DNA of 16,620 nucleotides from Elusimicrobiota bacterium (GTDB lineage Bacteria; Elusimicrobiota; Elusimicrobia; F11). A program made the position numbers and the translations under genes. This document shows, in pieces, positions 82 through 16,620 of the stretch (positions are counted from its first letter, which is position 1; each line of letters begins with the position of its first letter). The notes beneath the pieces are model-generated. The model had not been told where the DNA came from and did not search any database. It saw only the letters and a list, made by a program, of their open reading frames with translations. The stretch covers positions 1 to 16,620 of the forward strand of contig JBJXGI010000076.1 in the NCBI GenBank assembly GCA_046153645.1, in the 5' to 3' direction.

Positions 82-435
82 ATGTTCAATTATCAACAGA
101 ATTTACTAATCCATCCCCAATTTGCGATGTCAAGTTTCTTCAGAGGGAAACGAGGTTGGGGCGGTCGAAATACTACCCCTTACGTATTTACAGAACAAGG
201 TGTTGCTATGTTATCTTCCGTCCTGAATAGTGATCGAGCGATTCAAGTGAATATTCACATAATGCGAGCATTTATGAAAATTCGAGAATGGTTAACGACA
301 CATCATGACCTACAAGAACAGATCAAAAAATTAGAAGAGAAATTTGATCGTAAGTATGCGGTGGTGTTTGAAGCCATTCAATTATTGTTAGATGAGCCGA
401 AGAAACCAGTACGAATTAAAGGTTTTGGAAAATAA
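82..435 (+). pseudogene. ORF6N-domain DNA-binding protein, apparently N-terminally truncated
   Basis: QFAMSS..WGGR..PYVFTEQGVAMLSSVLNSDRAIQVNIHIMRAF..IGF-like tail matches the C-terminal half of ORF6N proteins. The usual N-terminal IRGQKVMLD..LA.LY..AVKRN..RFP segment is absent. GGAG at 71-74 precedes ATG 82. Confidence 0.7.
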
Positions 436-440
436 AGCAC

Positions 441-1532: not shown

Positions 1533-3168
1533 GAGTGGGGGTTTTATCCTTTTCCAAAATATCGGTGAGTAAGTTCAATACACGTTTCTCTTCTTTTTCT
1601 TTGAATCCCAAAATTTCTCGAAGTCCAATACCAATGTGTGGCAAATAAGAACGAATATAATCTTTTTTTCGTTTGGCTTCGGCTTCACGGTAACCGCGTC
1701 GTAAATAAGCATCAAGTCTTCGCCCACATTCTTGTAGGGCCAAACGAATTTCTTTGGTGATCTCAGAATAACCGGCCACGGCTTCTTTTGATTCCGAAGT
1801 AAAGGGAACCCAAACGCTCGCCATGTGAACAGCAATTAAAAGCGGTGCACTGGGTAAAGCACCTTTTGATTGATCAACGCCATAATTTTTCCAAGCTGTT
1901 TGCAAAACACTTTTTGTAATTGCACAGGCCGATTGCTGATATAACAAGGGAACACGATTGGCAAAACGCATTACTTCTGCTAATTCTTCTTTAGGCAGAT
2001 CGCCACCATAAGCCAGCGCCACTTCAATTTGAAAGGGGTTCCCTCGGTAAACTGATGGTGGACGGGTTAAGGCGGTATAAAAATCCGCGTTTAAATTCTT
2101 TTTAATTCCCTGCAGTAAATTACTTTCACCAATCGGAGACAAACAATTGGTGGGGGGATTCATGATTTTAGTCTGGCCGATGGTTTTATGAAGTTTATCA
2201 GCATCACTGTGGGCGATGTCTGTTGGTTTGGCATTTGGATCAATGCCGGCTGTTTTTAAAATTTTCCCTGCTACGTTGGTTGACACACGCGCAAAATCTT
2301 TCGCTAAAAATGATTTGACTGAACGGGCGGACGTGCTTTTGAGCATCTTCATTAAAATGCCAAGTTCCACACCGTGAGGATGCGGTTTAATTTCTTTCGG
2401 TTGAATGGGGAGTGATTTGCTTGCTGGTTTATAATGTTCTTTGGTTCCGTCAGGTCCTTTGTAAATAAGTTCAATGTGTGGGTTGGCTAGTGCCGTTTGC
2501 CTTACGTAATCTTCAACCGAGTGACGACCTTTTTGAAATTTGGCTTCCAGTTCAATATGAACTTTGGTGCCATGGGGTCGGTCCCACTTCACAATTTCAT
2601 CTTTGACCACAGTGGGTAAATTTTTTGCGGTATCAATTTGAATTTCAAAATAATGCGCTGGTTTTTTCGCAGAGATGCGGGAGGTAATTTTTGTCGGTGA
2701 ACCCGTGGTTAACTGTCCATACATGCCCGCGGCCGAGATCCCGATTCCTTGTTGTCCACGGCTTTGTTTCATCGAATGAAATTTCGAACCATAAAGCAAC
2801 TTTCCAAAAATACTAGGTATCTGTTCTTTAACAACACCGGGTCCATTGTCAGTTACAATCACAATAAACCGGTCATTTTCTAATTCTTTAATTTCAACTG
2901 AAATTTCAGGAGAAATTTTTGCCTCTTCACATGCATCCAAACTATTATCTACCGCTTCGCGAACAGTGGTGAGCAGGGCTTTTTTGGCGTTATCAAATCC
3001 AAGTAAATGGCGGTTTTTAAGAAAAAATTCGCTAACGGAAATATCCCGCTGCTTGGTTGCCATTCGATCGGCTTCAGTTTTACCTTCTCCACCCTTCTCC
3101 TTGTGGATTACGGGGGGCTTTTCTTTTGGTTTTTTAATAACAGAAATGGGTTTGATTTGTTTTTTCAT
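1525..3168 (-). CDS. top6B: DNA topoisomerase VI subunit B
   Basis: ISVSEFF.KN.HLLGF, EAVDNSLDA, DNGPG, GKLLYGSKF, SRGQQGIGIS (GHKL motifs), KPHPHG, RFANRVPL, VPFTSESKEA (transducer). Confidence 0.97.
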   Translation of the reverse strand: MKKQIKPISVIKKPKEKPPVIHKEKGGEGKTEADRMATKQRDISVSEFFLKNRHLLGFDNAKKALLTTVREAVDNSLDACEEAKISPEISVEIKELENDRFIVIVTDNGPGVVKEQIPSIFGKLLYGSKFHSMKQSRGQQGIGISAAGMYGQLTTGSPTKITSRISAKKPAHYFEIQIDTAKNLPTVVKDEIVKWDRPHGTKVHIELEAKFQKGRHSVEDYVRQTALANPHIELIYKGPDGTKEHYKPASKSLPIQPKEIKPHPHGVELGILMKMLKSTSARSVKSFLAKDFARVSTNVAGKILKTAGIDPNAKPTDIAHSDADKLHKTIGQTKIMNPPTNCLSPIGESNLLQGIKKNLNADFYTALTRPPSVYRGNPFQIEVALAYGGDLPKEELAEVMRFANRVPLLYQQSACAITKSVLQTAWKNYGVDQSKGALPSAPLLIAVHMASVWVPFTSESKEAVAGYSEITKEIRLALQECGRRLDAYLRRGYREAEAKRKKDYIRSYLPHIGIGLREILGFKEKEEKRVLNLLTDILEKDKTPTHG

Positions 3169-3192
3169 TCCGTAAGATTACTACACCGAGAA

Positions 3193-3969
3193 TTATTCTG
3201 GAAGTTTAAACGTGGCCCATAACACGGTATGGTCTGATGGTTCAGGGGCTTGGCGGGGGGCAAGGTCTACTTGAATATCTGTGCAAGTTTTGGCCAGGTC
3301 AGGGGTTGCTAAAATGTGGTCGATTCTCCAGCCTTTATTGTTTTTGAATGCATTGGCGAACATCGCCCAAAAGGTGTAACTCACCGTATCAGGATATTTC
3401 ATTCGATAAACATCAACGAAACGGTTATGAATGGTTTTTTTGTACGCTTCGCGAGCGGCGATATGAAAGCAAGGGTGATCTTTGTTAGGAATGGGGTTAG
3501 CCAAATCAATGGGTTCAGGGGCCACATTTAAATCGCCTACCCAAATGGTGGGAAGTTTATTTTTTAAATATGAATCAAAATATTTTTGTAGTCGTTCATA
3601 CCAATTTAATTTGTATTCATATTTGGGAGATTCAATTTCGAATCCTTGAGGTATATAGGTGTTTACAATTTGAATTCCACCTATCACAACTTGCAGCAAC
3701 CGAAAATCTTCTGAGTCTGGCCCATCTTGAAATCCATAAATTACTTTTTCTGGTTTTTCTCTGGTGAGTGTGGCAACTCCGTTATATCCTTTCATTCCAC
3801 GAAACGTCACATGATAACCTGCTGCTTGCAGGGGCTGCAGCGGAAAGTCAGTATCCACTACTTTGGTTTCTTGTAAACACAAAACATCAGGTGAGTTTTT
3901 TTTGAGCCAATCTAAAACAATCGGCATGCGTTTACGAATGGAGTTACAATTGTAAGTGGCGATTTTCAT
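3193..3969 (-). CDS. xth: exodeoxyribonuclease III (AP endonuclease)
   Basis: MKIATYNCNSIR, LQETK, YNGVA, GDLN, WRIDH, SDH. Start placed at ATG 3969 (MKIATYN), 7 nt after the upstream stop. Confidence 0.95.
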   Translation of the reverse strand: MKIATYNCNSIRKRMPIVLDWLKKNSPDVLCLQETKVVDTDFPLQPLQAAGYHVTFRGMKGYNGVATLTREKPEKVIYGFQDGPDSEDFRLLQVVIGGIQIVNTYIPQGFEIESPKYEYKLNWYERLQKYFDSYLKNKLPTIWVGDLNVAPEPIDLANPIPNKDHPCFHIAAREAYKKTIHNRFVDVYRMKYPDTVSYTFWAMFANAFKNNKGWRIDHILATPDLAKTCTDIQVDLAPRQAPEPSDHTVLWATFKLPE

Positions 3970-3976
3970 TTTTTGA

Positions 3977-4252
3977 TTACTTTTTGTGTTGTGTTTCAAT
4001 AATTTTTAGTGATTCAGTAACAGAAGTGTTTTTGCTGGGAAGGCAGACCACACGCCCCTTGCCGTATTCTTTGCGCAAAATCGTTAAAACTTCATCTAGC
4101 CATGAAGGACCAATAGCAAGGACTCCAGAGAAATCGAGAGCAATTTTCTCTCCTTGTTTGGGCTTAAAATAAGCTTTGATAGTAAGCCCTGCTTCTTTAC
4201 CCGCTGGCCGAGAAGTAAGAATTTCTCCAAATTTTTTTAAATTTACTTTCAT
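3977..4252 (-). CDS. STAS-like (DUF4325-type) small protein
   Basis: FG..L.SR..G and LDFSGV..IGPSWLDE pattern of DUF4325/STAS-like proteins. ATG 4252 forms an ATGA overlap with the upstream stop (4249-4251). Confidence 0.8.
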   Translation of the reverse strand: MKVNLKKFGEILTSRPAGKEAGLTIKAYFKPKQGEKIALDFSGVLAIGPSWLDEVLTILRKEYGKGRVVCLPSKNTSVTESLKIIETQHKK

Positions 4253-5025
4253 TTTAGTCTCCAAGTCATAAGGGTGAAGGTCCCGTTAACTTTCGAGAAA
4301 TTCTTACTCAGAAGAGCCGCACATTTTTCACCTTGCTCTCCATATTGGACGTGTCCCGTTCCCGAAATACAAGCAACGCCGCACCCTTGAGTTGTTGAAA
4401 GGTTATTTTTAACATATTTCAATCCGTTTCCTCGTTGTTCTGGCGCTCTTCCTGAAATAATTGTTTCAAACGCAGCTTTTAAAGCGGTTTGATCGTCTTT
4501 CAAGTGTTTATGAATTTTGATAAGTGATTGAAAAATACCTTGTCCTCTGTCCGCAATCCAAACCCAAAGATGATGCCCCGTGACTTGTGACTCGAACCAG
4601 CAGCCCGGAACATCTTTCCATTGTCCAAGGTTATGATCAAACGAGTTGTTACCAATTTCACCGATAATAGAAATAACCAAAGGCAAAATATTTTCTGATA
4701 AACCATTGTTCATAAAAGATTTCAAATGAGGCAATCGGGCATTAAAAATTTCTCTTGTTTCGCAAACCCATTGCTGAGGATTTTTGTCAAGAGTTTTGGC
4801 GTTAATCCAATGGGAGACCGCTTCAAAATCCGGTATCCCTGCTAAAGCATAATAAGTTAAGGGGGGTGACCCTATGGCTTCCAAAACTTCTTGTTCAACG
4901 AGGCTTCGTAAATGGCGATGAATAATTTGAGGTGAAATATTCAAGTGTTCTCGTAACTCGACGGGCCTCATTTTTTGGTTTTTTTTTATCAATTCAATGA
5001 TTTCTGATCGCGTTTTGGTTTTCAT
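4249..5025 (-). CDS. winged-HTH + histidine-kinase-like ATPase (HATPase_c) protein
   Basis: N-terminal wHTH (ELREHLNISPQIIHRHLRSLVEQ..L..IGSPP..YY). C-terminal N box EIGNNSFDH, G1 IADRGQGI, G2 RGNGL, GTF. Confidence 0.85.
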   Translation of the reverse strand: MKTKTRSEIIELIKKNQKMRPVELREHLNISPQIIHRHLRSLVEQEVLEAIGSPPLTYYALAGIPDFEAVSHWINAKTLDKNPQQWVCETREIFNARLPHLKSFMNNGLSENILPLVISIIGEIGNNSFDHNLGQWKDVPGCWFESQVTGHHLWVWIADRGQGIFQSLIKIHKHLKDDQTALKAAFETIISGRAPEQRGNGLKYVKNNLSTTQGCGVACISGTGHVQYGEQGEKCAALLSKNFSKVNGTFTLMTWRLK

Positions 5026-5066
5026 AGTTTATAGTTTACTATAAACTATAAACTATATTAATGCAA
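5024..5066 (-). promoter_or_regulatory. sigma70-type promoter overlapped by a perfect 15-bp inverted repeat (putative operator)
   Basis: Minus strand reads TTGCAT(5066-5061)-17 nt-TATAGT(5043-5038)-12 nt-ATG. Plus strand has ATAGTTTATAGTTTA(5024-5038)-CTA-TAAACTATAAACTAT(5042-5056). Confidence 0.75.
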
Positions 5067-5107
5067 CGAGGTTTTCTTAAATTCTCTTTGTTTTCATATG
5101 ATAGGTT

Positions 5108-5890
5108 GTGCGTAAAAAAATAATATTCATTATAGCTTTGGTTATTCTATTGCCGCCGTTATGGTATCTCACTCATTTGCCAAAGACAAGCGAGTTGAAA
5201 ACCACAAATCCCAAAACCTCCGCCATTCGAATTTATCGCGAGGAACAAAAAATAAAAAAAGGGAAAAAGCCGCATTCATCCATGCAATGGCGCAATCTTA
5301 AGGATATATCTCCTTATTTAATTCATGCCGTTATTCTCGCTGAAGATGATACTTTTTATCGGCACCATGGTTTTGATTTTGAACAACTTAAAAAAGCTTT
5401 CCAAGAAAATTGGAAGCGTAAACGTTTTGCTTTTGGCGCCAGCACAATTACGCAGCAGTTAGCACGCACGCTATATTTGTCTTCTCATAAAAATTTACTT
5501 CGTAAAGCCAAAGAAGCGCTGATCACTCGCCGTCTCGAAAAAACATTACCCAAGTATCGAATTCTTGAGCTCTACTTAAATGTTGTTGAATGGGGGCCTG
5601 AAATTTACGGGGCTGAAGCGGCGTCACAACATCATTTTGGTAAATCCTCCATTGCCTTAACGGCAAATGAGGCTATTGCGCTGGCCGCTATTTTGCCAAG
5701 TCCACGAAAATGGAACCCCATGAAGGAAAACGGTTTTATGGGACGGCGAAAATCTATTCTTTATGAGCGAATGGTCAGAGCCCATCACATTGTTTCTGAA
5801 GTTGAGGTAGAAGAGTCAACAGGCTCTGTGGTATCACCTGGAAGCGAAGAGCTGCCTACTGATGAAATCGGCGAATCAATAAAGGAATAA
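5108..5890 (+). CDS. mtgA: monofunctional peptidoglycan transglycosylase (GT51)
   Basis: N-terminal TM segment, AEDDTFYRHHG, GASTITQQLAR, RKAKE, ILELYLNVVEWG, GAEAA, LPSP. No transpeptidase domain. Confidence 0.92.
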   Translation: MRKKIIFIIALVILLPPLWYLTHLPKTSELKTTNPKTSAIRIYREEQKIKKGKKPHSSMQWRNLKDISPYLIHAVILAEDDTFYRHHGFDFEQLKKAFQENWKRKRFAFGASTITQQLARTLYLSSHKNLLRKAKEALITRRLEKTLPKYRILELYLNVVEWGPEIYGAEAASQHHFGKSSIALTANEAIALAAILPSPRKWNPMKENGFMGRRKSILYERMVRAHHIVSEVEVEESTGSVVSPGSEELPTDEIGESIKE

Positions 5891-6870
5891 TGTATTCAAA
5901 GGAAAGAAAAATGAACACTCCAGAAAAATCAAATGAAATAAAACTTATTCGTTTTTATGAAGCACCTGTGAAAGCGGTTTGGGATGCGTGGACGGAACCT
6001 GAACAAGTAGCAAAATGGTGGGGTCCGCGCGGCTTTACTCTCACATCACACAGCAAAGATATTACGACTGGCGGCCATTGGCATTACACGATGCACGGCC
6101 CCAATGGCGCTGATTATGTGAACAAAACCAAATATCTCGAAGTGGTTCCTTATAAGAAACTTCACTATGACCACGGCGGCAATGATGAACGCGCTCCGCT
6201 TTTCCGCGTGACGGTTTACTTTAAAGAAGTGAAAGGCGGAACAGAAATGGACATGACAATGGCTTTAGCGACAGCAGAAGCCGCCGAACAAACACGTCAA
6301 TTTATTAAAAAAGCAGGTGGCGATTCTACTTGGGACCGCTTCGCGGAATACTTAAAACAAAAAGCGAGTGGCAAAGACGTGTTTGTGATTAATCGCAGTT
6401 TTAACGCTCCTATTAATGTGGTGTTCGACATGTGGACTGACCCGAAACATTTTTCACAGTGGTTAGCACCCACCGGTTTTCATATGAAGTTTATTAAAGC
6501 TGACATTCGCCCCAACGGTAAAACATTTTATTCCATGACTGCTGAAAACGGCAGTATGACTCTGTATGGCTGTGCCGAATACTTGAAAATCGAACGTCCA
6601 CACACGTTGGTTTACAATCAACAATTTTGTGATGAACACGAAAATATTTCACACCACCCGATGGTACCCACGTACCCTGAAACCATGCAAACAACGGTTC
6701 AGTTTTCTGAAGAAGGTTCTCACCAAACACGTGTCACTGTAACTTGGGAACCGATTGGTAATGTCAAACCCGAAGAGTTCGCCGCTTTTATACAGATGCG
6801 CGCTGGAATGACTCAAGGTTGGACAGGGTCATTCGATAAATTGGAAGAGTATTTAGTGCACGTCCGATGA
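5890..6870 (+). CDS. tandem SRPBCC/AHSA1-like domain protein (start may be ATG 5911)
   Basis: Two AHSA1-type repeats: R.Y.AP...VWDAWT.PE....WWGP and RSFNAP...VF..WTDP....W, ending GW..SFDKLEEYL. Confidence 0.88.
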   Translation: MYSKERKMNTPEKSNEIKLIRFYEAPVKAVWDAWTEPEQVAKWWGPRGFTLTSHSKDITTGGHWHYTMHGPNGADYVNKTKYLEVVPYKKLHYDHGGNDERAPLFRVTVYFKEVKGGTEMDMTMALATAEAAEQTRQFIKKAGGDSTWDRFAEYLKQKASGKDVFVINRSFNAPINVVFDMWTDPKHFSQWLAPTGFHMKFIKADIRPNGKTFYSMTAENGSMTLYGCAEYLKIERPHTLVYNQQFCDEHENISHHPMVPTYPETMQTTVQFSEEGSHQTRVTVTWEPIGNVKPEEFAAFIQMRAGMTQGWTGSFDKLEEYLVHVR

Positions 6871-6978
6871 ACAGTAATTTAATTTTTGATTTATTGTTGT
6901 TGGTTTTACATTAAATTTATATTCATTGTTTAATCTTTTGGACGAGTCAACATTTAATTTAATCAGGAGATAATTGCA

Positions 6979-7908
6979 ATGAAAGTTAAAATTTATTTAC
7001 TACTAATTATTTTATGTTCAGCACCGAATGTAATACAAGCTCGATATTATGATGCCGCCAATGGACGTTTTATTAGCCCAGATACCATTGTTCAAGATCC
7101 TGTTGATCCCCAAAACTTCAATCGATATGCCTATGTTAGAAATAACCCTCTGATTCTCACAGATCCATCAGGGAATAAATGGAAATTAAGTAACACCTGG
7201 AGCAAAGTTGGAGATTTGTTGAAATCAGTTTTATCTCAATCTCCAGGTCACCCACATTCTGGTGCTTCAGAAAATAGGCCAACGTCTCCCAGAAATCCTG
7301 GTAAGCTTGGAATGCCAAATCCGCGCACTTCTGACTTGTCCTCTCTTGTTACAATCCAACAACTGCCTGTTATTTATTCTGGCCCCACCACAGTTTTCAC
7401 ATGGGCTATAGTTGATTCATTTTCAGATGATTTTTTGAATTCGGGAAGTTATGAAAAATTATCTTCAAATATTTTTGGACATAATGTGAATGAAAAAGAA
7501 AAACGGGCATTGGCTTCATTGATAGGTTTTGGAGGTAGTTATATTTATAGAGCTATTGTTGGTTATTCTGCGACCAGTTATAAAGGAAGAGGATATGCTG
7601 AGAAAGACCCATCTTTAGATGCTGGAATTCAGGGTTTTAATAATATTGGTATTGCTCATATGGGGACTCCTAAAACATTTTTTGATGAAGGTAATTCTTT
7701 CTCGCAATTCTCTAATAATATATTTGGCGTCAATACTGTTGCCGGAATGCATGATCAATTTCAAGTCCAATTAGAAAAACATTGGGGAGTTGGGGCCCGT
7801 GGAAGGTGGAATGCATTTGGAATGCCTATTGCGGCAGTAATGACTTACCCAACATTGGTATGGCACCCCATTTGGCTATATGAAAATGAACTTAAAAATG
7901 GCCGATAA
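6979..7908 (+). CDS. signal peptide + minimal RHS repeat-associated core + putative toxin C-terminal domain
   Basis: AGGAG RBS. Hydrophobic N-terminus, then ARYYD...GRFISPD...NRYAYVRNNPLILTDPSG, then about 240 aa of variable C-terminus. Confidence 0.85.
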   Translation: MKVKIYLLLIILCSAPNVIQARYYDAANGRFISPDTIVQDPVDPQNFNRYAYVRNNPLILTDPSGNKWKLSNTWSKVGDLLKSVLSQSPGHPHSGASENRPTSPRNPGKLGMPNPRTSDLSSLVTIQQLPVIYSGPTTVFTWAIVDSFSDDFLNSGSYEKLSSNIFGHNVNEKEKRALASLIGFGGSYIYRAIVGYSATSYKGRGYAEKDPSLDAGIQGFNNIGIAHMGTPKTFFDEGNSFSQFSNNIFGVNTVAGMHDQFQVQLEKHWGVGARGRWNAFGMPIAAVMTYPTLVWHPIWLYENELKNGR

Positions 7909-7911
7909 TTT

Positions 7912-8514
7912 ATGAATAAATTATATTTTAAAAATTATTTTTTACTGACTATTTTGTTTATTCTGTCGTTACAAGGTTGTACTTTTACTTACTATAGATT
8001 AAGAAATAGCAAAAGTATTAAGTCGGCGACAATAGTCGCAAAGAAGCCTTGTGAGTTTAAGTATTCTATCGATATAGAATATGAACCGCGACTCCTCCAT
8101 GGTCAATATCCTTTTTGGGAGGATGTACCCACAAAGATGGTGGATCGATATATTAAGGTGACCCAAGACGCTTTTAATGAAACGGCTTGCACAGCGCAAT
8201 TGGTGACTGATAACAACCAAGCAAATTTATTAATTTCTGTTTTGTATAGACCATTTTTAAGCGCCTTACCACAGGAATGGCTGACAGGATTATCATTTGG
8301 CTTGGTTCCAAGTTGGGGAACAAGACGCGGAGAATTTGTCCTTACCTTTAAAAATACGATTTCCGATAGGGAAAAAAAGTATTACATAGACAGGCCCGCA
8401 TTTAATCATTTAATTGCATTTCCATTTTTCTGGGTGCCGCTTAATTCAAAAGAAATAATGCTATACAAAAAAGCGCTCATTGATTTTGTTGAAATTGAAA
8501 AATTGAATTATTAA
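7912..8514 (+). CDS. lipoprotein, putative immunity protein
   Basis: Lipobox LQGC after a hydrophobic stretch. Starts 3 nt after the Rhs-CT stop. Same low GC as that gene. Confidence 0.7.
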   Translation: MNKLYFKNYFLLTILFILSLQGCTFTYYRLRNSKSIKSATIVAKKPCEFKYSIDIEYEPRLLHGQYPFWEDVPTKMVDRYIKVTQDAFNETACTAQLVTDNNQANLLISVLYRPFLSALPQEWLTGLSFGLVPSWGTRRGEFVLTFKNTISDREKKYYIDRPAFNHLIAFPFFWVPLNSKEIMLYKKALIDFVEIEKLNY

Positions 8515-8527
8515 GTTTTTATTCTGT

Positions 8528-8756
8528 TTAATTCCAATCATCAATCTTTAAATCGTTCGGTGCAGGTTTGCCTTTTCCTTTGGATAGATTAAAAGTGATG
8601 TGGGTATCAAGCCATTCTTCGGGCCAGCTTTCGCCGTCCACTTAAATCTTTAGGCGAAAGCCATTTTAAGAAAGTGCCACCGACCAATTGGCTCTAATAT
8701 CCCATGCGTTTTTCATAAGCGGCACCGTTATCAAAACGAATTTGATCTGTGGTCAT
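8528..8756 (-). pseudogene. chimeric gene debris: class I SAM methyltransferase N-terminus joined to SRPBCC fragments
   Basis: Hand translation from ATG 8756 gives MTTDQIRFDNGAAYEKRMGY*SQLVGGTFLKWLSP (TAG at 8696-8694). A second frame gives PEEWLDTHITFNLS-KGKGKPAPNDLKIDDWN* (stop 8530-8528). Confidence 0.65.
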
Positions 8757-8792
8757 ATGGGCTCTTTAGAAACCAAAAAATATTACTAAATC

Positions 8793-8846
8793 ACTGCCCC
8801 TATGGCCGAAGGCGCCGATACCTATATAATCGGCCAGAGGGGCAGT
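8793..8846. terminator. GC-rich 17-bp inverted repeat (1 mismatch, 20-nt loop), likely terminator or stabilising stem downstream of the Spy-like gene
   Basis: ACTGCCCCTATGGCCGA (8793-8809) pairs with TCGGCCAGAGGGGCAGT (8830-8846). Confidence 0.5.
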
Positions 8847-8899
8847 CGCGTTTTATGGATGTGTCGGCATCACCACTTGAATATTATTTTGGGAGACTT

Positions 8900-9304
8900 T
8901 TATTTTTTATCCTTCTTCATTTTTTTATCCATCTTCTTTTTCATTTTGCACTCGTCTGTGCATCCATTTTTGCATTCGGGTCCGCATTTCATGCCGTGTT
9001 CGTGGTTTTCGCCGTGTTGATGCATGGCTTCGAATTTGGTTTTTTGTTCATCGGTCAAGACCGCTTTAATTTTCTCACGAGTCTCTTCGTGGATCGCTTT
9101 GATCTTTTCGTGTTTCTCTTTTTTTATGGTTTCAATTTGCGTGCTTTGCTCTGGTGTAAGGCCGAGCGCTTCAGTCATCTTGCCCATTTTTCCTTCGGCT
9201 GGTTTCTCATCGCCGACGCCGCATTTCCCGCAGTGCGCGTGAACCATTGAACCGAACGAGACTGATAAGCCCAGCATTGTTAGTAATAGTATTTTTCTTT
9301 TCAT
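8900..9304 (-). CDS. secreted Spy/CpxP-like (LTxxQ) protein with Cys/His-rich ends
   Basis: AAGGAG RBS before ATG 9304. Signal peptide ending VHA. LGLTPEQ and VLTDEQKTKF motifs, plus HCGKCG and KCGPECKNGCTDEC. Confidence 0.75.
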   Translation of the reverse strand: MKRKILLLTMLGLSVSFGSMVHAHCGKCGVGDEKPAEGKMGKMTEALGLTPEQSTQIETIKKEKHEKIKAIHEETREKIKAVLTDEQKTKFEAMHQHGENHEHGMKCGPECKNGCTDECKMKKKMDKKMKKDKK

Positions 9305-9338
9305 TATTTTCTCCTTTATTGGTGTAACAGATTTGATG

Positions 9339-9378
9339 ATTATAGTATGTCCTTTTATCAATCAGTTGGGTATCAGTT
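9339..9378 (-). promoter_or_regulatory. putative activator-dependent promoter of the Spy-like gene
   Basis: Perfect TATAAT (9344-9339). Direct repeat AACTGAT at 9367-9361 and 9378-9372 (11-bp period) sits at the -35 position. Confidence 0.5.
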
Positions 9379-9393
9379 TTTATATCTCCTCTT

Positions 9394-10131
9394 TTAATCG
9401 TTAGTTCGTTTGGACATTGGATTGTTGAGCTGCTTCGTTATCTCCTTTGTATTATCTGACTTCAAATTCTCATGGATGGATGAAAACTTTTGAACTGCAT
9501 CAGGAATTAAACCTCCAATAGCCGCATCAACTCTTGCTCTAACTCGCGAGAAAATGTCGTCAGCAATACCGGAAAGTTTTAATTCGTAATGTTTTCTAAG
9601 AACATACTCATGTATCAATGTTCTCCTTGAGGCTAATCGACGAGATGCTTGCAATGCGTCTTGTTTTGCGAGGTTGCGTTCATAGGTATTTCCAACCGGA
9701 TTAAAAACAGTTTGATTTGGGTTAGCAGAAGTCACCGATACATTGGGATCTTTTGCGGCACTTAGAGTCATTTCTGATATTCGAACGGAATGTTCCAATA
9801 CCGCGATCCCTTCCGTGTAAATGTGGTCACGCGCTATCTTTGTGAGATCGCTTTGTGAAAATTTCCTGCCAGCGACAACTGCTAGACGCCAAACTTCTTG
9901 GGCGACGCCAGTAGATTCAGATGGATATCCACCAGCTTCATACGCCATGATTTTTTGAACATCAAAGTCGCCTAAGATTCTTGCGAGACGGCTGGTTTTT
10001 AACGCGATGTTTACCAATGGCAATTCGCTTAGCTCGATATTTCTAAGAATATCCCCGGAAAGATCGAGGGCCTCTTGAAGGGAGGCTCTGCTTGGGTGAA
10101 CAAGATCATCGCTGTTGTGGTTTTTTTCCAT
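9394..10131 (-). CDS. AbiTii-like domain protein, probably C-terminally truncated
   Basis: IL.NIELSELPL.NIALK.SRLAR.LGD......YE..GY resembles the AbiTii N-terminal domain. Start placed at ATG 10131 because the longer ORF runs through the tRNA. Confidence 0.6.
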   Translation of the reverse strand: MEKNHNSDDLVHPSRASLQEALDLSGDILRNIELSELPLVNIALKTSRLARILGDFDVQKIMAYEAGGYPSESTGVAQEVWRLAVVAGRKFSQSDLTKIARDHIYTEGIAVLEHSVRISEMTLSAAKDPNVSVTSANPNQTVFNPVGNTYERNLAKQDALQASRRLASRRTLIHEYVLRKHYELKLSGIADDIFSRVRARVDAAIGGLIPDAVQKFSSIHENLKSDNTKEITKQLNNPMSKRTND

Positions 10132-10157
10132 GATTAACTCTGCATGAGTAAAAAATT

Positions 10158-10244
10158 CGGAGAGGGAGGGATTCGAACCCCCGGTACCCGTGAAGGCACT
10201 CACGCTTTCAAGGCGTGCGCTTTAAACCACTCAGCCACCTCTCC
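10158..10244 (-). tRNA. tRNA-Ser(TGA), intact, CCA not encoded
   Basis: GGAGAGG/CCTCTCC acceptor stem, discriminator G, anticodon arm CACGC-CTTGAAA-GCGTG, long variable arm, T-arm GGGGG-TTCGAAT-CCCTC. Confidence 0.97.
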
Positions 10245-10249
10245 TAAAA

Positions 10250-10801
10250 TTAGTGTCCGTCTTTCTTAACGATACCGGGTTGCACCGCGGGCGTTCTTGG
10301 TAAATCATCGGCCACATGTATCGGCAATGAACGCTTACCTTGCAAAATTTCAATTGCTCCTTGTCTAAGAAGCCGAAATTCCTCTTCAATCGCCCCATGT
10401 GCCATAGGTGAATAGCTCGAATTTTTTATGTGTGTTTTGTCGAAGTCATAGTCCAACACGGTCGCCATCCGGTGTAGCATTTCAACAAGCAGATCAATTC
10501 GTTTAATAGCCCACTGTTCAACTGGAATTTGGGTCTGACCTAAATGGTCAAGATATTCCTTCCATGAGTCTAGAACTGCGCGTTCCTTTTTCTCGTTTTT
10601 GTCAAATTCAAGGTCAATCCTGTTTAGTGCTTCGACGTGCGCCCATGTAATGGTGTAGCTCCGGGTTGCCATTAACGTCTGAAAAATTGAAAGCTTTCGT
10701 TCCCTGATTTCACGCTTTCGATCTAAATATCGCGTTAGCTGAACAGCTATCAGCGGACCAGTCAGTACTGCTACAACCATCACCCAATCAGCTATTGTCA
10801 T
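10250..10801 (-). CDS. DUF6680-like protein with N-terminal TM helix
   Basis: AAGGAGG RBS before ATG 10801. Pattern AVL.GP.IAVQ....LD......RK..IF.TLMATR......HVEALN.IDLEF..W..Y..HL..LL..MA..L.Y.FD...I....YSP..HG. Confidence 0.7.
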   Translation of the reverse strand: MTIADWVMVVAVLTGPLIAVQLTRYLDRKREIRERKLSIFQTLMATRSYTITWAHVEALNRIDLEFDKNEKKERAVLDSWKEYLDHLGQTQIPVEQWAIKRIDLLVEMLHRMATVLDYDFDKTHIKNSSYSPMAHGAIEEEFRLLRQGAIEILQGKRSLPIHVADDLPRTPAVQPGIVKKDGH

Positions 10802-10862
10802 AATCCCTCCTTTAAGCACGGTGACTCAAATAAAAACCCGGGCTTAGGTTTTCGATCCCCTT

Positions 10863-10962
10863 ACAACCCTTTACAACTTAGTTTACAACCAACCCGTCAA
10901 TTTACATCCATCTGCATCAACACGCATATCAGCTTCTCCGACGAGAAAGTGCGATAGGTTTG
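10863..10962 (-). repeat. 100-bp conserved non-coding element, copy A
   Basis: 78/100 ungapped identity (hand count) to 13822-13921. Two TTTACAAC boxes 12 bp apart, and an invariant AAAGTGCGATAGGTTTG. Confidence 0.92.
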
Positions 10963-10975
10963 GTTGATCTTCAAT

Positions 10976-11014
10976 TTTCAAGTCGTCCGCATTCGACCAC
11001 TCTGCCACCTCTCC
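10976..11014 (-). pseudogene. 5' half of a tRNA-Ser(TGA), ending at the anticodon loop (att-like fragment)
   Basis: GGAGAGGTGGCAGAGTGGTCGAATGCGGACGACTTGAAA is 33/39 identical to the intact tRNA's 5' half. No 3' half follows. Confidence 0.9.
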
Positions 11015-11035
11015 ATTCATTACGACTATTGCCAA

Positions 11036-11066
11036 GGAGGTGACTGCACAAGACGCTGCCACCTCC
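11036..11066. other. stem-loop between the TPR gene and the tRNA half
   Basis: Minus strand GGAGGTGGCAGC-GTCTTGT-GCAGTCACCTCC: a 12-bp stem with one mismatch and one G-U pair. Confidence 0.6.
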
Positions 11067-11190
11067 CCAAAAATTACTTGTTGCCGTTTACGCGATTTGG
11101 GAATGATACCTCCAAAACGACACATCCCACATCTGTTTTGAATGGGCCATGTTCTTCCCCTGGCGGCCTGCTCGCATAGTGCCTACTTTG

Positions 11191-13818
11191 CTAATTGCTT
11201 CCGCTTCCGCCACAAGCGGAGCAGGTGGTCATACCGCCCGAGCTGTGGGAGGTGCGAATGCTGCCAGCGGAGTTATAAAAATCTTCACGTTGCGACGCGG
11301 TTGCGCCGCTGGGCGCCGAGATACGCGTTTGACTTGCGCCTCCGCTTTGCCAAACTTGACCGGACCCATTACAGCGGGAACAGACGCTGGGAGAGTTGTT
11401 CGGCTGGTTGCTGTTGATGCCTTGCTGGTATTCGCGCCACGATGCGTCCGCCGCTTCTTTTTCTTCCTGTGCTTTTATCTCCGCTTCGACAACGCGCCAG
11501 TCGCGATCGCTGTTGCGTGTGGAAACATAGGGCGCTACACCGGAAGCCGGATAATTGAAGATGGTATGGTCACGGCCAACTCGTGTGTCATAAGTGAAAT
11601 CCCCATTGGGGTTCAGGGTGATGAACGAATCGCGGTCGATAACTGCAATTTCGGACATGTTCCTTCGGTCCCGGCGTGCTTGCACAACAGCGCCTTTGAG
11701 AAAAAGCGACCAGCCTCCATTGTCTTCCATTATCACTCCCGTCTCGGGTAAGTGCTTTTCATTGAGGTCACCTCGAAACCAACCAAATCCGGGAATATCC
11801 AATCGCGCTTGGCGCCCAGGCGCGGTTGTTGCCACCAGTCCATCGCTTAAGGTGATGATGGTCTTATCGCCCTCAACAACGCGAGACACTTCTTTAATGA
11901 GTGTTGTCGGTACACCGTAGAAGAACGGACCGCTGAGCAGATCGAATCCGTCGGCGTACACAAAAACTCCTTCTGAAACTCCTTCCGATTCATTGGAAAG
12001 CGGTTTTAACAAACCGAAATAAAACGAACCGAAGGGAGTCCATGGGAGCGAATCGGGAGGGAACCAGGCGAGGTCGCGATATCCCAAAGGATAAATGTGT
12101 TTCCCGCTGGACGTTGTTTTGGGTGACTCCACGGGGCCGCGCTTACCATCGCGGAACGCTTTTTGATAGTTGACGCCGTCGGGAAGAAGATAAATGCCTT
12201 CGAAGTCATGAAGAAGATAAACGCCTTCGGAAATTTTCGGCCAAAGCCTGAGGGAGCCGTCCTTCTGCCACTGAGTGCGTAGCCCGATTGATGAATAGAT
12301 GGGGTCCAGATTTCCTTTTTCCCGAACGTGGGTGGCCATGGGCGCCAACATTTCCATCAGGTTTTTGGGCTTGGCGCCGCCTCGCTTTGCGATGAATGAT
12401 TCGCGGGCCTTTTCATAAAGGGGATCGTATTTCACAAGCGCCTTCAAGTCCTTTTTGATTTGGGAGGCCGTCTTATAGTTTTGCGCGGCCAGGAAATCAT
12501 TGCCCGCCGCGGTGTGGATGTCGCCCCGAAGCGCGTAATTTTCAATCTTGAACGGCTTGTAGGCAATGAGATGAGCCGACGTGTAAAGCGCTTCGGTGTA
12601 CCGCCCAGCCTTGGTCAGAGTGAGGGCTTTGTTGCGCAGAGCGAAGTCGTCCCAGGGGGTTTGGGCCAGGAGCAAATCCCAATTCTTGACGGCTTCATCG
12701 AAGTTTCCAAGACCGGTGTGAATGAGCCCCAAATTGGTGAGCCCCGCCGGAACGGCCAGAGTGGGATCCAAGGCAAGCCCCTCTTGAACGGACGTCAACG
12801 CTTCCGCGAATTTGCCTTGTAAGCGCAGCGAGGCCCCGCGGTTGATCATGGCGCGAGCGAATTTTGGGTCGACCTTTAACGCCTGGGCAAGTGCGGCATC
12901 GGCACGAGCAAAATCAGGGTTGGGTCGTCTGAGCAAGGTGGCGGCCAAATAGCTGTGGCCACGCGGGTCGTGTGGCGTCGCGCGAGCGGCCTCTTCACAC
13001 GCCAACAGAGTTCTTTCATTCGCCTCGGGGAATAGATGCATGCACCAGTCAACGGCGCTCGCCGAGTCTTTGAGGAGCTCCTTCCCGCGTTTGGACTTGC
13101 TCACAGTGTCCATGTCTTTAACGTAGTCATTGAACCCAGCGCGGTCGTGATATCTCATTGATCCGTGGGGATAGGAATTCAGGTTTCCGACGGATTCGGA
13201 GAGTTTGACAGCGACCAGCAAATCCTTTTTTTGATCCGAGATTTTCCCAAGAGCGTCATAAAAAGTTGAACGCTCAGCGTAATTCTTGTAATTGGGAACC
13301 AGCTTGATCGCCACGGTTATTTCGGCAACGGCCTTCTTGAATTCTTTACTTTCTCCATAGGCATTGGCCCGAACATTGTGGGCGTAAGCCTTCATCCATT
13401 TTCCATAGGCCGCGAATTTCTTGAACGCCTCATCGCGGGCCTTTTCACCCTTGGCATTTTCAAACGCTTTTAACGCCTTTCGCCCTGTTATCTGGCCTGA
13501 ATCTTCAGACCGTTTCCAATACATCTTGATGGTTTCCAATTCGGGTATTTCGCTGCTGACTTGACGGTCAGCGAGAGCCAGCCAATCCCAGACATTGGCG
13601 TCGATCGGCTGTTCGCCATCGGCCACCAATTGACCGCAGGCTTCAAACACTTTCCACGGGTCTATGGCTTCATAGGCGGCGCGACAGGCCTGCATCGGGG
13701 TGGGTGTGGCCCACCCCGGTAAAACAGAACCGACCGCTACAAAAACCCCCATAAATATAAATTGTTTCAACCTTGTTGTTCTTAACGTCTTGTGGTTTTT
13801 TAATTTCATTGTTAGCAC
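11191..13818 (-). CDS. large exported TPR-repeat protein with C-terminal CxxCxGxG zinc-finger (true start may be a downstream ATG)
   Basis: Signal-like FIFMGVFVAVGSVLPGWA. TPR consensus (AMINRGASL..QGKFAEA.....GLALDP, LTNLGLIH..LGNFDEA). CSRCNGSG...CSACGGSG at the end. GC visibly higher than flanks (34/60 in line 12841 vs 21/60 in line 1561). Confidence 0.85.
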   Translation of the reverse strand: MLTMKLKNHKTLRTTRLKQFIFMGVFVAVGSVLPGWATPTPMQACRAAYEAIDPWKVFEACGQLVADGEQPIDANVWDWLALADRQVSSEIPELETIKMYWKRSEDSGQITGRKALKAFENAKGEKARDEAFKKFAAYGKWMKAYAHNVRANAYGESKEFKKAVAEITVAIKLVPNYKNYAERSTFYDALGKISDQKKDLLVAVKLSESVGNLNSYPHGSMRYHDRAGFNDYVKDMDTVSKSKRGKELLKDSASAVDWCMHLFPEANERTLLACEEAARATPHDPRGHSYLAATLLRRPNPDFARADAALAQALKVDPKFARAMINRGASLRLQGKFAEALTSVQEGLALDPTLAVPAGLTNLGLIHTGLGNFDEAVKNWDLLLAQTPWDDFALRNKALTLTKAGRYTEALYTSAHLIAYKPFKIENYALRGDIHTAAGNDFLAAQNYKTASQIKKDLKALVKYDPLYEKARESFIAKRGGAKPKNLMEMLAPMATHVREKGNLDPIYSSIGLRTQWQKDGSLRLWPKISEGVYLLHDFEGIYLLPDGVNYQKAFRDGKRGPVESPKTTSSGKHIYPLGYRDLAWFPPDSLPWTPFGSFYFGLLKPLSNESEGVSEGVFVYADGFDLLSGPFFYGVPTTLIKEVSRVVEGDKTIITLSDGLVATTAPGRQARLDIPGFGWFRGDLNEKHLPETGVIMEDNGGWSLFLKGAVVQARRDRRNMSEIAVIDRDSFITLNPNGDFTYDTRVGRDHTIFNYPASGVAPYVSTRNSDRDWRVVEAEIKAQEEKEAADASWREYQQGINSNQPNNSPSVCSRCNGSGQVWQSGGASQTRISAPSGATASQREDFYNSAGSIRTSHSSGGMTTCSACGGSGSN

Positions 13819-13821
13819 TTA

Positions 13822-13921
13822 ACAATCCTTTACAACCCAGTTTACAACCTGCCAGTCAATTTACAGCTATCTCCGCGAACATCCGTCACAGTCACTCCGA
13901 CAAAAAAGTGCGATAGGTTTG
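13822..13921 (-). repeat. 100-bp conserved non-coding element, copy B
   Basis: Direct repeat of 10863-10962 at an offset of 2959 bp. TTTACAAC boxes at 13829 and 13841. Confidence 0.92.
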
Positions 13922-13945
13922 ACTGTTTTTATTTCTCTTCTTTTT

Positions 13946-14374
13946 TCACGCGCTCTTTGAGCATTTTCGGCAACAAATCAAAGAGTCAATGGAAAACCGG
14001 CCGCCTCCGGTAAAAACAAATGAAAGGGCCACGGCTCCATAAAGAAATGCCAATTCTTTGACTTGGAAGGGATCCTTCGCATGCGCCCAAAAAAACGCGA
14101 CTGCCATGGTCACAAAAACAAAAAAAGCGGAAATTCTGGTGCCAAGGCCAATGGCGATAAAAAGGCCGCCGACCAATTCAGCCAGCCCTGCCAACCATGC
14201 CATGATGGTGGGCGCTGGCATGCCCATTTGTGTGAGTCCTTCGGCCATGCGCGGCATTATGCCACCGAATACTTTTTGGTAACCATGATAGGCCATTCCC
14301 AGTCCCATCAAAACACGGAGGATTAATAGCCCGCCGCTTTTTAATTTACATTTGAGTCCTGTATGTTCAGTCAT
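13946..14374 (-). CDS. DoxX family membrane protein
   Basis: LLILRV..G.....HG.QK, AELVGG....GL.TR, ELA..Y......GGGRFSID. Confidence 0.92.
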   Translation of the reverse strand: MTEHTGLKCKLKSGGLLILRVLMGLGMAYHGYQKVFGGIMPRMAEGLTQMGMPAPTIMAWLAGLAELVGGLFIAIGLGTRISAFFVFVTMAVAFFWAHAKDPFQVKELAFLYGAVALSFVFTGGGRFSIDSLICCRKCSKSA

Positions 14375-14402
14375 TGATCCCCCCGTATTTTTTCCTTTAT
14401 AT

Positions 14403-15017
14403 TTATTTCACTCGTTTGTAGGTAATTTCCATGTTTTTGAATTCTTTTCCATCGGGTCCTTTGGAGTAAGATAAATACACGTGGTTATCATTATCAATAA
14501 TTTTTGTTTCTGTGCGGGCCCATTTGTTTTTTTCACCGGTCATAGGGCAGCTAAAATCACCATCGGAAGAGAAAGTTTTGGTTGTTGCGTCATATTTTCC
14601 TGAAAACTTCATCATCCCGGTCATGAAGTTATCAAGCCAAATGGATTCATATTGCCCGCGAATATTATCATAGCCAATAAGTCCCATGCCTTCAAAAGGT
14701 TGGCCAGCCCAATCGCCTTTAAATTCTTCTTGTACAAAACGGCCACCCAAAACCCACCAGTTTTTGGCTAAACCTTTTGATTCTTCAACTTTTCCATTGG
14801 GTTCCATCCAACCTTTCACTTCGGCTGTCCAATTTCCAATCAAAGGTTCAAGCATTTTGTGATTTTCTGAAGGAGAGCCATGTTTCATCGCATTCATCAT
14901 CGCTTCTGACATCATGGGTTCTTTTGTTATTAATTTTTTATCTTTTTTCCCAGCCCATAAAGTTGTTAGAGACCCCGCGACAATAACGATCGCCACTATT
15001 TTCATTCCATTTTTCAT
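14403..15017 (-). CDS. DUF1579-domain secreted protein
   Basis: GAGAGG RBS before ATG 15017, signal peptide, P...H..L..L.G.W, LGGRF, FEG.G..GYDN....Y.S.W.D...T, MEITY.R. Confidence 0.85.
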   Translation of the reverse strand: MKNGMKIVAIVIVAGSLTTLWAGKKDKKLITKEPMMSEAMMNAMKHGSPSENHKMLEPLIGNWTAEVKGWMEPNGKVEESKGLAKNWWVLGGRFVQEEFKGDWAGQPFEGMGLIGYDNIRGQYESIWLDNFMTGMMKFSGKYDATTKTFSSDGDFSCPMTGEKNKWARTETKIIDNDNHVYLSYSKGPDGKEFKNMEITYKRVK

Positions 15018-15092
15018 GTTAACCTCTCTTTTCATTAGATTCATTTTTAAAAAATTTTTAGGATTTTAACTTGTTTTGTTAAAGATGTGTTG

Positions 15093-15404
15093 TTAATTCC
15101 TTCCCTGATTTTCAAGTTTGTAAATAGCTCGAATAAGGTGGGAAAATTTTCTCCCAAAAGGTGTGAGAAAATATTCCACCTTGGGAGGAATGACCGGAAA
15201 TGATTTCTTTTCCAGAATTCCAAAGGCCACTAGTTTCTTGAGCCTTTCAGTTAGCACTTTTCTTGATAAATTTTTGGCGCTTTTTTCTAATTTCCCAGGT
15301 CGGCGGTTACCTTGTTGAATTTCGTTTAATACGTGAAGCGACCATTTGCAACCGATAATAGATTCCATCATTTCAGGTGTTGTGTAACTTTCTCGTTTTT
15401 TCAT
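15093..15404 (-). CDS. HxlR-family winged-helix regulator
   Basis: IIGCKWS..VL, LS.KVL.ERLK.L...GI, FP.IPPKVEY.LTPFG. Confidence 0.92.
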   Translation of the reverse strand: MKKRESYTTPEMMESIIGCKWSLHVLNEIQQGNRRPGKLEKSAKNLSRKVLTERLKKLVAFGILEKKSFPVIPPKVEYFLTPFGRKFSHLIRAIYKLENQGRN

Positions 15405-15425
15405 TTAACCTTTTAAAAGCCACTG

Positions 15426-15460
15426 TTACTTTTGGGTGCGTATTGAACCAAAAAGTGCGG
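15426..15460. promoter_or_regulatory. putative HxlR operator in the divergent intergenic region
   Basis: TTACTTTTGGGTGCG and AACCAAAAAGTGCG repeat GTGCG 19 bp apart, with TTTTGG/CCAAAA dyad symmetry. Confidence 0.4.
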
Positions 15461-15521
15461 GCTATCCCATTTAATATTGAGAAGCTATGTTTGTGCCATT
15501 CTAATATTAAAGGAGTAAAAC

Positions 15522-15761
15522 ATGAAAAATAAAGCAATATTTTATCACGCAGGTTGCCCGGTTTGTGTGAGCGCAGAACAAGGTGTGACAAGCGCCATTG
15601 ATCAGAATAGGTATCAAATTGAAATTGTTCACTTGGGAAAAGACAAAAATCGTATTTCTGAAGCTGAAAAAGCCGGCGTCAAATCAGTTCCAGCCTTGGT
15701 TATTGATGAACGCGTTTTTCATATCAACTTCGGAGCAAACTTAAGCGATTTGAAAAATTAG
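15522..15761 (+). CDS. small thioredoxin/glutaredoxin-like protein
   Basis: AAGGAG RBS, FYHAGCPVC, GVKSVPALV, FHINFGA. Confidence 0.9.
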   Translation: MKNKAIFYHAGCPVCVSAEQGVTSAIDQNRYQIEIVHLGKDKNRISEAEKAGVKSVPALVIDERVFHINFGANLSDLKN

Positions 15762-15814
15762 TTTTCAATTGCGGTTTATTATTTGATGGATTGAACTTGA
15801 GAAGAAAAAACCTG

Positions 15815-16273
15815 TTATCGATTCGAATGAATCACGCCACTCGTGTGGCTGCCGGCGCAATCTGAACCTGTAAAAAATATGTTGAGAAGAGTGCTCGGTC
15901 TGTTTCCTTCGGCTGTTCCCGTAAAAGTCCCTGCGCAGGGTGAGGTTTGATTCATCACAACGTCCATATGGTCGGTGTAAATGTAGCCATCCACGGTTCC
16001 TTGAATATTTAAATCCGGCACAGAATAACTTCCTTGAACCGTGGAGCCATTTTGGTTAAAGCTCATACTCACTGTTTTAGAAGAAGTATAAATAGAAGTG
16101 GAATACTCACCCGTCCAGCTGCCTTGCGTGTTAAGCGTGTAAGGGGTGGGGTTTGAAAAGCTAGAGCCTTTTTTGTCTTTTTCACACCCGGAAAAAATAA
16201 AAATCACCCCTAAAATAAGAGGCAAAAATGTTTTTTTCATCAGAGCGGCACTATTTTTATTAGAGATTTTCAT
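15815..16273 (-). CDS. hypothetical lipoprotein (start may be ATG 16240)
   Basis: MKKTFLPLILGVIFIFSGC lipobox, followed by a Ser/Thr/Gly-rich beta-type sequence. Confidence 0.7.
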   Translation of the reverse strand: MKISNKNSAALMKKTFLPLILGVIFIFSGCEKDKKGSSFSNPTPYTLNTQGSWTGEYSTSIYTSSKTVSMSFNQNGSTVQGSYSVPDLNIQGTVDGYIYTDHMDVVMNQTSPCAGTFTGTAEGNRPSTLLNIFFTGSDCAGSHTSGVIHSNR

Positions 16274-16350
16274 AAGCTATTTTGGCTTATATTGCCTTAA
16301 AATCTCTTTAAGAACAGGTTAAGCTTGGGTTAAAAATTTATAGAAAAGTA

Positions 16351-16620
16351 TTAACTCTCAAAGCTGCAAAGGTATTCGGTTAAGCCCTCTTTAACTGTGA
16401 TATCAAAAGATGATCTTGGAGCAACAAAGAATGTTTCACCTGTTGAATATTTCTTTTCTAAACTTTCGGTGGCTAGTTTAACGAAACATTCTCCGGAAAT
16501 AATGTCCATTCTCTCTCCTTCTTCGGTTTTGAAATGATATTGCCCAGGTCGGATTGCGCCAATGGTTTGGCGTTTTCCATCTTTAGAAAGAATTGTATGA
16601 CTCACCACGCCACCATCAAA
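16351..16620 (-). CDS. ppnP: pyrimidine/purine nucleoside phosphorylase (DUF1255), 5' end outside the window
   Basis: The frame stays open to the window edge (FDGGVVSH). T.G...PG.Y.F.T...E.M.I.SG and F.V...SSF...V.....YLC.F. Confidence 0.88.
   Translation of the reverse strand, partial: FDGGVVSHTILSKDGKRQTIGAIRPGQYHFKTEEGERMDIISGECFVKLATESLEKKYSTGETFFVAPRSSFDITVKEGLTEYLCSFES

Follow-up and report, generated by a model that had tools for sequence, protein, structure and literature searches.

Integrons assemble one-directional rows of short, promoterless and unrelated genes, the newest lying next to the anchor, by means of an IntI integrase, an attI site and attC hairpins. A row of similar appearance stands beside a tRNA-Ser(TGA) gene in an Elusimicrobiota bacterium, in a stretch of 16,620 nucleotides (GenBank assembly GCA_046153645.1, contig JBJXGI010000076.1, positions 1 to 16,620 of the forward strand) that is called the window below. 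It consists of two related sites of about 120 bp, two cargo genes and 5' halves of tRNA-Ser, followed by the intact tRNA. The analysis presented here indicates that this feature is real and only resembles an integron; it most likely originates from nested tRNA-replacing satellites, joining tRNA-dependent lysogeny to an accretion like that of cis-mobilizable elements (CIMEs).

Several described systems come close to it; their sources were accessible in part, and what is said of them refers to those parts. In tRNA-dependent lysogeny (Guerrero-Bustamante & Hatfull 2024, PMC10865867), a tyrosine integrase acts on a short core within a tRNA gene, the tRNA is not rebuilt upon integration and the element carries a tRNA that matches it in isotype. 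Related integrases with and without tRNA rebuilding coexist in that work, whose authors also raise, as a speculation, the integration of a second plasmid into the carried tRNA. The Islander collection (PMC4383910) contains 159 islands out of 3919 with a displaced 5' fragment upstream of an intact tRNA and an anticodon-centred crossover. CIMEs (PMC5704250) are decayed, integrase-less elements stacked at one gene by repeated site-specific integration. The Prochlorococcus islands built by tycheposons (10.1101/2020.12.28.424599) combine tyrosine integrases specific for tRNAs with satellite-like modules, remnants and partial tRNAs, and grow in one direction, and general cases of tRNA-fragment repeats are given in PMC10872708 and PMC9897764. 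A description of the present layout was not found in the literature searched, most subscription papers being outside its coverage.

Organization of the tRNA-Ser locus

The genome that holds the window is designated G000; G001 and so on are related genomes, L numbers are fetched loci and C stands for contig. On the minus strand, the features of the locus succeed one another in this order:

13946..14374, minus strand: doxX gene, upstream flank (open reading frame; Pfam DoxX); its stop lies about 10 nt ahead of site B
13816..13936, minus strand: site B, a left attachment arm with neither core nor tRNA half of its own (repeat comparison, BLAST)
13905-13921, minus strand: motif of site B complementary to the integrase leader; arm-type repeats at about 13849-13819
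11191..13809, minus strand: TPR protein gene, cargo 1, with C-terminal CxxC repeats (open reading frame; Pfam TPR_1/2)
11030..11069, minus strand: degenerate tRNA-Ser 5' half with a T-tract leader, the third half of the locus; its G001 counterpart still ends in the 7-nt core
10976..11014, minus strand: orphan 5' half of tRNA-Ser(TGA), from a different allele with anticodon stem GACGA and a compensated D-stem, ending in the core at 10976-10982
10857..10975, minus strand: site A, a left attachment arm, with its motif at 10946-10962 and three arm-type repeats at about 10890-10860
10250..10801, minus strand: DUF6680 gene, cargo 2 (DUF6680 match, E 1e-55); its stop lies 6 nt ahead of the tRNA
10245..10249, minus strand: T-tract leader, typical of element-borne tRNA copies
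10158..10244, minus strand: intact tRNA-Ser(TGA), core at 10206-10212, presumably element-borne
9394..10131, minus strand: AbiTii-domain gene, 245 aa, just downstream of the tRNA

Repeat comparison and BLAST confirmed the basis of an earlier note on this DNA, which had described two related sites 2959 bp apart, an orphan tRNA-Ser 5' half and two cores spaced by 770 bp. The repeat pair comprises 10863-10971 in site A and 13822-13930 in site B, with 78% identity over 100 nt (E 6e-17), and the orphan half is 85% identical to the intact one (E 7e-6). No further copy of the site was found in the 2.63-Mb assembly by BLAST, and a 26-site profile also returned sites A and B only. The Pfam matches agree with the cargo identities proposed in that note, and the TPR gene (GC content 0.535; 0.446 for the DUF6680 gene) is indeed richer in GC than the flanks (0.40). 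Its ATG lies about 7 nt past site B, and a homolog with 47% identity stands ahead of the same two tRNA halves in G001. The claimed repetition of a unit made of site, gene and tRNA half was found as described, but neither a core nor a tRNA half was seen ahead of site B, so that the TPR unit does not have a core at both ends. No second arm was detected in the window ahead of either half, nor any arm pair outside sites A and B, and a candidate remnant of a second arm in the tail of the DUF6680 gene scored at background level (p 0.34). None of the 25 longest of 90 inverted repeats was a long one at the sites; the boundaries are direct repeats (site and tRNA half). Only one Ser(TGA) gene is present among 42 tRNA calls in the assembly. 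The absence of a recombinase, already reported for the window, extends to its whole contig, which holds none of the six tyrosine recombinases (PF00589) of the genome.

The earlier note had overlooked that the AbiTii gene just downstream of the tRNA is truncated. Its product has 245 aa, compared to approximately 340-350 aa in almost every one of the 120 best among 527 homologs. The homology ends at about 9421-9451, and the remainder was not found in the assembly with five homologs as queries. The end of the homology is presumably a deletion junction.

A promoter scan returned 3 sites where 5.3 were expected, and no consensus promoter was found inside the sites on the minus strand. In an Rfam scan, the tRNA alone passed the threshold and no Rfam family matched the site. 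The stop codon 6 nt upstream leaves the tRNA no room for a promoter of its own; it must therefore be driven from upstream, and read-through from there probably drives the transcription of both cargo and tRNA.

The site belongs to a clade of tyrosine integrases

A tblastn search with the six recombinases of G000 found no tyrosine recombinase in the first 25 loci. When five genomes were searched for the family, integrases were detected 11-18 kb downstream of sites. They sit behind an HTH_17 xis-like gene with their 3' ends facing tRNA-Ser, and some elements of this clade also carry primase genes. One of these integrases, used as a query, matched 13/201 genomes of the class Elusimicrobia at E <=1e-30. 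The close clade (at least 58% identity to the query) is present in 6/201 (G047, G043, G056, G079, G080 and G032), all with site or arm matches, and identity within the integrase clade is 46-65%.

Judged by sequence, the site is the left attachment arm of this clade, because its 9-nt repeats recur at the integrase end and its conserved motif mirrors the integrase leader. A tandem pair of these repeats, which we take to be arm-type sites as in the lambda family, also occurs at the 3' end of the integrase, at a distance of 55-68 nt from the tRNA half or stub that follows, at five of six ends (background p <=0.0013). At the sixth end, which belongs to the divergent G047 C12 integrase, a different version of the repeat is found, and the site of this integrase contains exactly that version. 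In 6/7 integrases, the leader from a TATAAT-like box to the ribosome-binding site reads as the most conserved motif of the site in reverse complement; site A has this motif at 10946-10962. Motif and leader change jointly in G047 C12 and the motif is lost from both in G079. The motif lies 12-14 nt behind the core; its leader counterpart stands just upstream of the integrase ATG in L118, L116, L138, L139, L142 and L141. A wobble test gave 30 G-U-compatible changes over 15 possible positions and 6 A-C changes over 3, that is no enrichment, and the test gives no preference to antisense action of the motif over a role as DNA operator.

The junctions in relatives show that crossover falls within the 7-nt anticodon loop of tRNA-Ser (TGA, GCT) or tRNA-Cys: the left junction reads host 5' half, core and approximately 120-bp site, and the right one, at the 3' end of the integrase, has the second arm, in which the repeats of the site occur again. 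On these data, the earlier proposal holds good for an attachment arm of a tyrosine integrase that is linked to the anticodon loop and is met again and again behind tRNA halves and ahead of varied genes, mostly single ones. A co-occurring tyrosine recombinase, as that proposal called for, was thus found in six relatives but not in G000, where the best identity to the clade is about 26-28%. The six tyrosine recombinases of G000 were considered as cognate partners and rejected (best identity to the clade about 26-30%; leader motif nowhere else in the genome). Viral contigs gave 42 candidate stretches, none of which was confirmed as a clade integrase, and no free attP was seen.

Two further observations concern integrases and sites. 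Each of the two G047 elements (L071:8474-8598, L072:8340-8440) holds an inner second site of the other's type, behind a core-like 7-mer and without a tRNA half. In G000, a solitary 396-aa tyrosine recombinase (C58:65785-66975) stands amid flagellar-type housekeeping genes.

Complete elements in related genomes

Two types of integrase-bearing elements were found. In type I (G047 C1, G047 C12 and G043), the integrase and second arm are followed by a 5' half identical to the displaced one (0/32 differences in 3/3 elements; the G043 ends lie on two contigs). In type II (G032, G056 and G079), a complete tRNA-Ser stands 197-1244 bp past the left core, preceded by a T-tract and by a slot that is empty or holds a single gene. 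Beyond this tRNA, defence, primase and other genes extend over 12-15 kb up to the integrase, which is followed in turn by the second arm, a stub, the core and another 3' half. Compared with real halves, the stubs are different at 23-26 of 32 positions. Since the internal tRNA of type II elements has no arm behind it, the upstream site is the left arm of the element.

Pairing of the halves agrees with this structure. The far 3' half, 12-15 kb off and behind the integrase, pairs perfectly with the orphan 5' half in 3/3 type II elements, while the internal tRNA stem shows 3, 2 and 0 mispairs with it in the three elements. In G032, two layers are nested in mirror order, with stems ATGCT then CCTGT upstream and ACAGG then AGCAT downstream. 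In G043, the xis end and the integrase promoter are kept ahead of a half, and the integrase is gone.

tRNA halves of the arrays

A second arm was not found before any of the 29 array halves checked (best score 1.0, compared to 27-31 at integrase ends); four empty units, which score through their own site only, were counted apart from these 29. The orphan half of the window mispairs at 2/5 anticodon-stem pairs with the present 3' stem GCGTG. More generally, orphan halves show 1-3 mispairs with the nearest intact 3' stem in 7/13 pairs, 5/9 when only integrase-free pairs are taken (2 mispairs in the window), compared to no stem mispair in 13/13 intact tRNAs. A clean swap of the window halves could not result from loop crossover alone, to judge from these stems, because the orphan half is a different, mispairing allele. 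It is close to the intact tRNAs of G064 and G001. In G001, a whole tRNA with a GATGA/TCATC stem comes after the same TPR gene and the degenerate half; the contig ends inside the TPR gene and the site is not assembled. A TTT leader precedes 23/33 array halves, including 3/3 internal tRNAs of type II, and was seen in 0/3 type I halves and 0/6 halves labelled as host.

Among the joints shown in contigs of four low-depth runs, neither the joint of a 770-bp circle nor an empty site was present, which proves nothing at such depth. The joints shown have other tRNA sequences between their sides and were read as tRNAs of other organisms.

Distribution, targets and cargo of the site

A model built from four sequences matched 19/151 genomes of the class, G000 included, and 6/12 genomes of the family. 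The 26-sequence model (R2) matched 21/150 class genomes, its hits mostly following tRNA halves or cores and preceding varied genes, as the earlier note had predicted for a profile search. In a phylum sample, model R2 matched 2/151 genomes (G000 and G005), with none outside the class among those searched. An exact arm pattern had no match in viral contigs, and a stricter one matched two genome contigs, both of known relatives, and one metagenome contig, being too strict to probe other phyla. The fetched loci gave 38 profile matches (one site counted twice): 22 behind a tRNA 5' half, 7 behind a core only and 9 behind neither. The targets are Ser(TGA), Ser(CGA), Ser(GCT) and Cys(GCA), the last being used by the same integrase clade and site within one genus (L141:7901-9117 in G080, L169:327-1680 in G075).

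Arrays hold up to 3-4 sites (G056, G032), and rows of 3-4 sites without an integrase in cis substantiate the integrase-free arrays claimed before. Unit sizes are 176-2620 bp, including empty units made of site, T-tract and tRNA. The cargo, annotated in two protein sets of 46 and 15, is co-oriented, mostly single per unit and unrelated across loci: SDR, EamA, methyltransferase, AAA ATPase, HNH, Mrr-like (PADLOC PDC-S02), AlbA, AbiV, DUF4145 (PADLOC PD-T7-4), ParE, VapBC, MNT-HEPN and many genes without a family.

Several sites are decayed or broken by palindromic inserts. Short GC-rich inserts of this kind occur in many dead halves and sites (L029:2264-2440, L029:4447-4588, L030:8008-8150, L073:1790-2070, L074:8281-8420 and L169:1500-1680). 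In G025, an intact tRNA-Ser(TGA) has a core one base off (L081:5178-5266); this altered core might block further integration.

Origin of the array

We consider it rather probable that the window units are the left ends of nested, tRNA-replacing, satellite-like (type II) elements whose integrase-bearing right parts were lost. The missing second arm, the T-tract leader, the stem mismatch, the cut AbiTii gene and the same left-end anatomy in relatives are the grounds for this reading. The mismatch, the T-tract and the cut gene also suggest that the intact tRNA of the window is element-carried. A type II element would land in any allele, bringing its own tRNA, and this carried tRNA would be the target of the next element. 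Old 5' halves would accumulate upstream and old 3' halves downstream, in mirror order. A deletion would then remove the right part, that is integrase, second arm and old 3' half, and the left end would be locked in place because it holds the only tRNA-Ser(UGA). Such a ratchet would leave an integron-looking row of site, gene and tRNA half. In the window, the TPR unit would have come first, with a GACGA-stem tRNA; a later element would have brought site A, the DUF6680 gene, the present tRNA and probably AbiTii, and would then have been cut inside AbiTii. Nested type II remnants come close to the eroded ends of integrase-bearing islands that the earlier note had set against its own proposal.

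Several points weigh against this origin. The genomes compared are related and not independent, and the labels host and carried were assigned by the analyst. Orphan and intact stems are compatible in 6/13 pairs. In G031 and G044, integrase-free units of 0.8-2.2 kb lie between identical halves (0/32 differences), which fit fresh 5'-half inserts equally well. A displaced second Ser(TGA) 3' half was found neither in G000 nor in any of 10 site-bearing genomes without clade integrase (by an exact pattern and with several fragmented assemblies; in G071, even the first Ser(TGA) 3' half was not matched by this pattern); loss of the right part must therefore be assumed every time. No clade integrase was detected in the 12 genomes of the family, though sites are present in six of them. 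Stop codons lie 30 nt or less from the next half in 9/12 single-gene intervals (20 intervals examined), a packing that random erosion would not be expected to give. Cargo recurs across genera (TPR in G000 and G001, a 164-aa PF06983 gene in G002 and G003), which fits mobile cassettes. Finally, AbiTii could stem from an unrelated island on the 3' side.

An alternative is that the units are one-armed mobile cassettes, circles of site, gene and 5' half moved in trans by the clade integrase via the left arm only. The tight packing of co-oriented, promoterless genes, the small units (176-2620 bp, some empty), the identical flanking halves in G031 and G044, the lack of displaced 3' halves, the cargo shared before halves of different genera and the integrase-free family genomes with sites would all suit such cassettes, and lambda Int is known to recombine arm with arm (attL x attL). 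Against this stand the missing second arm, the stem mismatch in 5/9 integrase-free pairs, the window included, the left end shared with complete type II elements and the absence of the clade integrase from G000, and we regard the alternative as unlikely. The self-contained 5'-half cassette of the earlier note, which was to rebuild the tRNA on insertion, was not upheld, given 29/29 halves without a second arm, the 2/5 stem mispairs and the complete carried tRNA in relatives. A true cassette system in the slot between arm and tRNA is similarly improbable; in it, single promoterless genes would be captured, a one-armed circle would be moved by a passing satellite integrase and the integrase leader would be repressed by the conserved motif of the site (as an operator copy, or as an antisense RNA from the tRNA promoter). 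If it existed, tRNA-Ser would be an integron-like gene-collecting site served by a lambda-type integrase in trans.

The units could also be internal-deletion relics of type I elements, which would have lost everything from the end of the first gene through integrase and second arm, with later changes of the tRNA alleles by mutation or gene conversion. Three type I elements with identical halves do exist, an integrase was deleted before a half in G043, and spacers are longer (82-177 nt) in units whose halves are identical; this would match the CIME route as far as described (PMC5704250). However, the T-tract leader that is common in the units is found in 0/3 type I halves, the deletions would need repeated endpoints 30 nt or less from a half, and the window orphan is a compensated, different allele near the intact tRNA of G064. 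We hold this explanation to be quite unlikely. A last reading takes the site for a copy of a host promoter or regulatory RNA placed before genes, and not for a recombination arm. It would answer the need of the tRNA for an upstream driver (a stop codon lying 6 nt before it), but is highly improbable, as site and integrase-end arm have their repeats in common and vary in them together, the site starts exactly at the anticodon-loop core, and it has neither an Rfam family nor a minus-strand consensus promoter.

Other genes of the window

Beyond the array, an HTH/ATPase-like gene with a small gene (3977-5025) forms a pair that recurs near the tRNA-Ser(TGA) locus in at least five relatives (68-74% identity). 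Two genes at 441-3168 are presumably topoisomerase VI A and B subunits, to go by resemblance, and a topoisomerase VI B-like gene is also present near the same tRNA in G003. A low-GC pair at 6979-8514 consists of a gene with an RHS-core-like motif start and a downstream lipoprotein-like gene, with no Pfam match; it is possibly a polymorphic toxin remnant and its immunity gene.

Discussion

If the origin from nested type II elements is true, the locus is a natural-genome case of nested integration into a carried tRNA, an event that is only speculated upon in the accessible parts of PMC10865867. It would also be a simple ratchet of gene gain: as soon as the cell has no other copy of an essential tRNA, loss of the front end that carries it would be ruled out, and the one-gene slot of that front end would be fixed. 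The cargo of this slot is often a defence or toxin-antitoxin gene. Island finders that require an integrase and 2 kb miss such units, and for other integrase-less stacks of 5' tRNA halves there is now an alternative that can be tested by comparison of anticodon stems and by displaced 3' halves. The clade itself supplies integrases with a 7-nt core and a motif common to att arm and integrase leader.

The likeness to integrons is limited to the row of short, promoterless, unrelated genes with the newest nearest the anchor. No IntI stands next to an attI at the array, and no palindromic attC closes each cassette (by repeat listing; no attC model was involved); the site is instead the double-strand arm of a lambda-type integrase. 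Elsewhere in G000, an IntI-like integrase (C73, L035:4061-5700) is preceded at the contig end by what resembles, by eye, an attI and a first cassette; it is an ordinary integron, separate from this locus.

The type I relatives fit the 5'-fragment islands of Islander exactly. In the window, the half at 10976-11014 is a same-orientation 5' fragment ending at the anticodon loop. Islander, as far as its source is accessible, needs an integrase and at least 2 kb per unit, as found in G047 (twice) and G043, whereas the window units have no integrase, one is below 2 kb (unit A, 770 bp) and the halves are different alleles. Like CIMEs, the units have lost integration and transfer genes. Unlike CIMEs, which keep attL and attR in the description available, they keep the left arm only; stacking is here on the 5' side, and in type II it is nested and not tandem. 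Tycheposon-built islands share the features listed above with this locus, but a complete replacement tRNA, a conserved arm per gene and a one-gene slot are not described in the accessible parts of that source.

The type II elements correspond to tRNA-dependent lysogeny. G032, G056 and G079 have an integrase, a 7-nt core in the tRNA and no rebuilt tRNA, and a complete carried tRNA of the same isotype is present in these three relatives; the window lacks the integrase end. The published cases, in the parts accessible, are full phages of Actinobacteria, with a dedicated promoter for the tRNA of Fionnbharth. In the present elements, the tRNA stands behind a one-gene slot, 0.2-1.2 kb past attL and oriented as in the host, and a promoter would find no space there; the elements are found in natural nested arrays and as stranded left ends.

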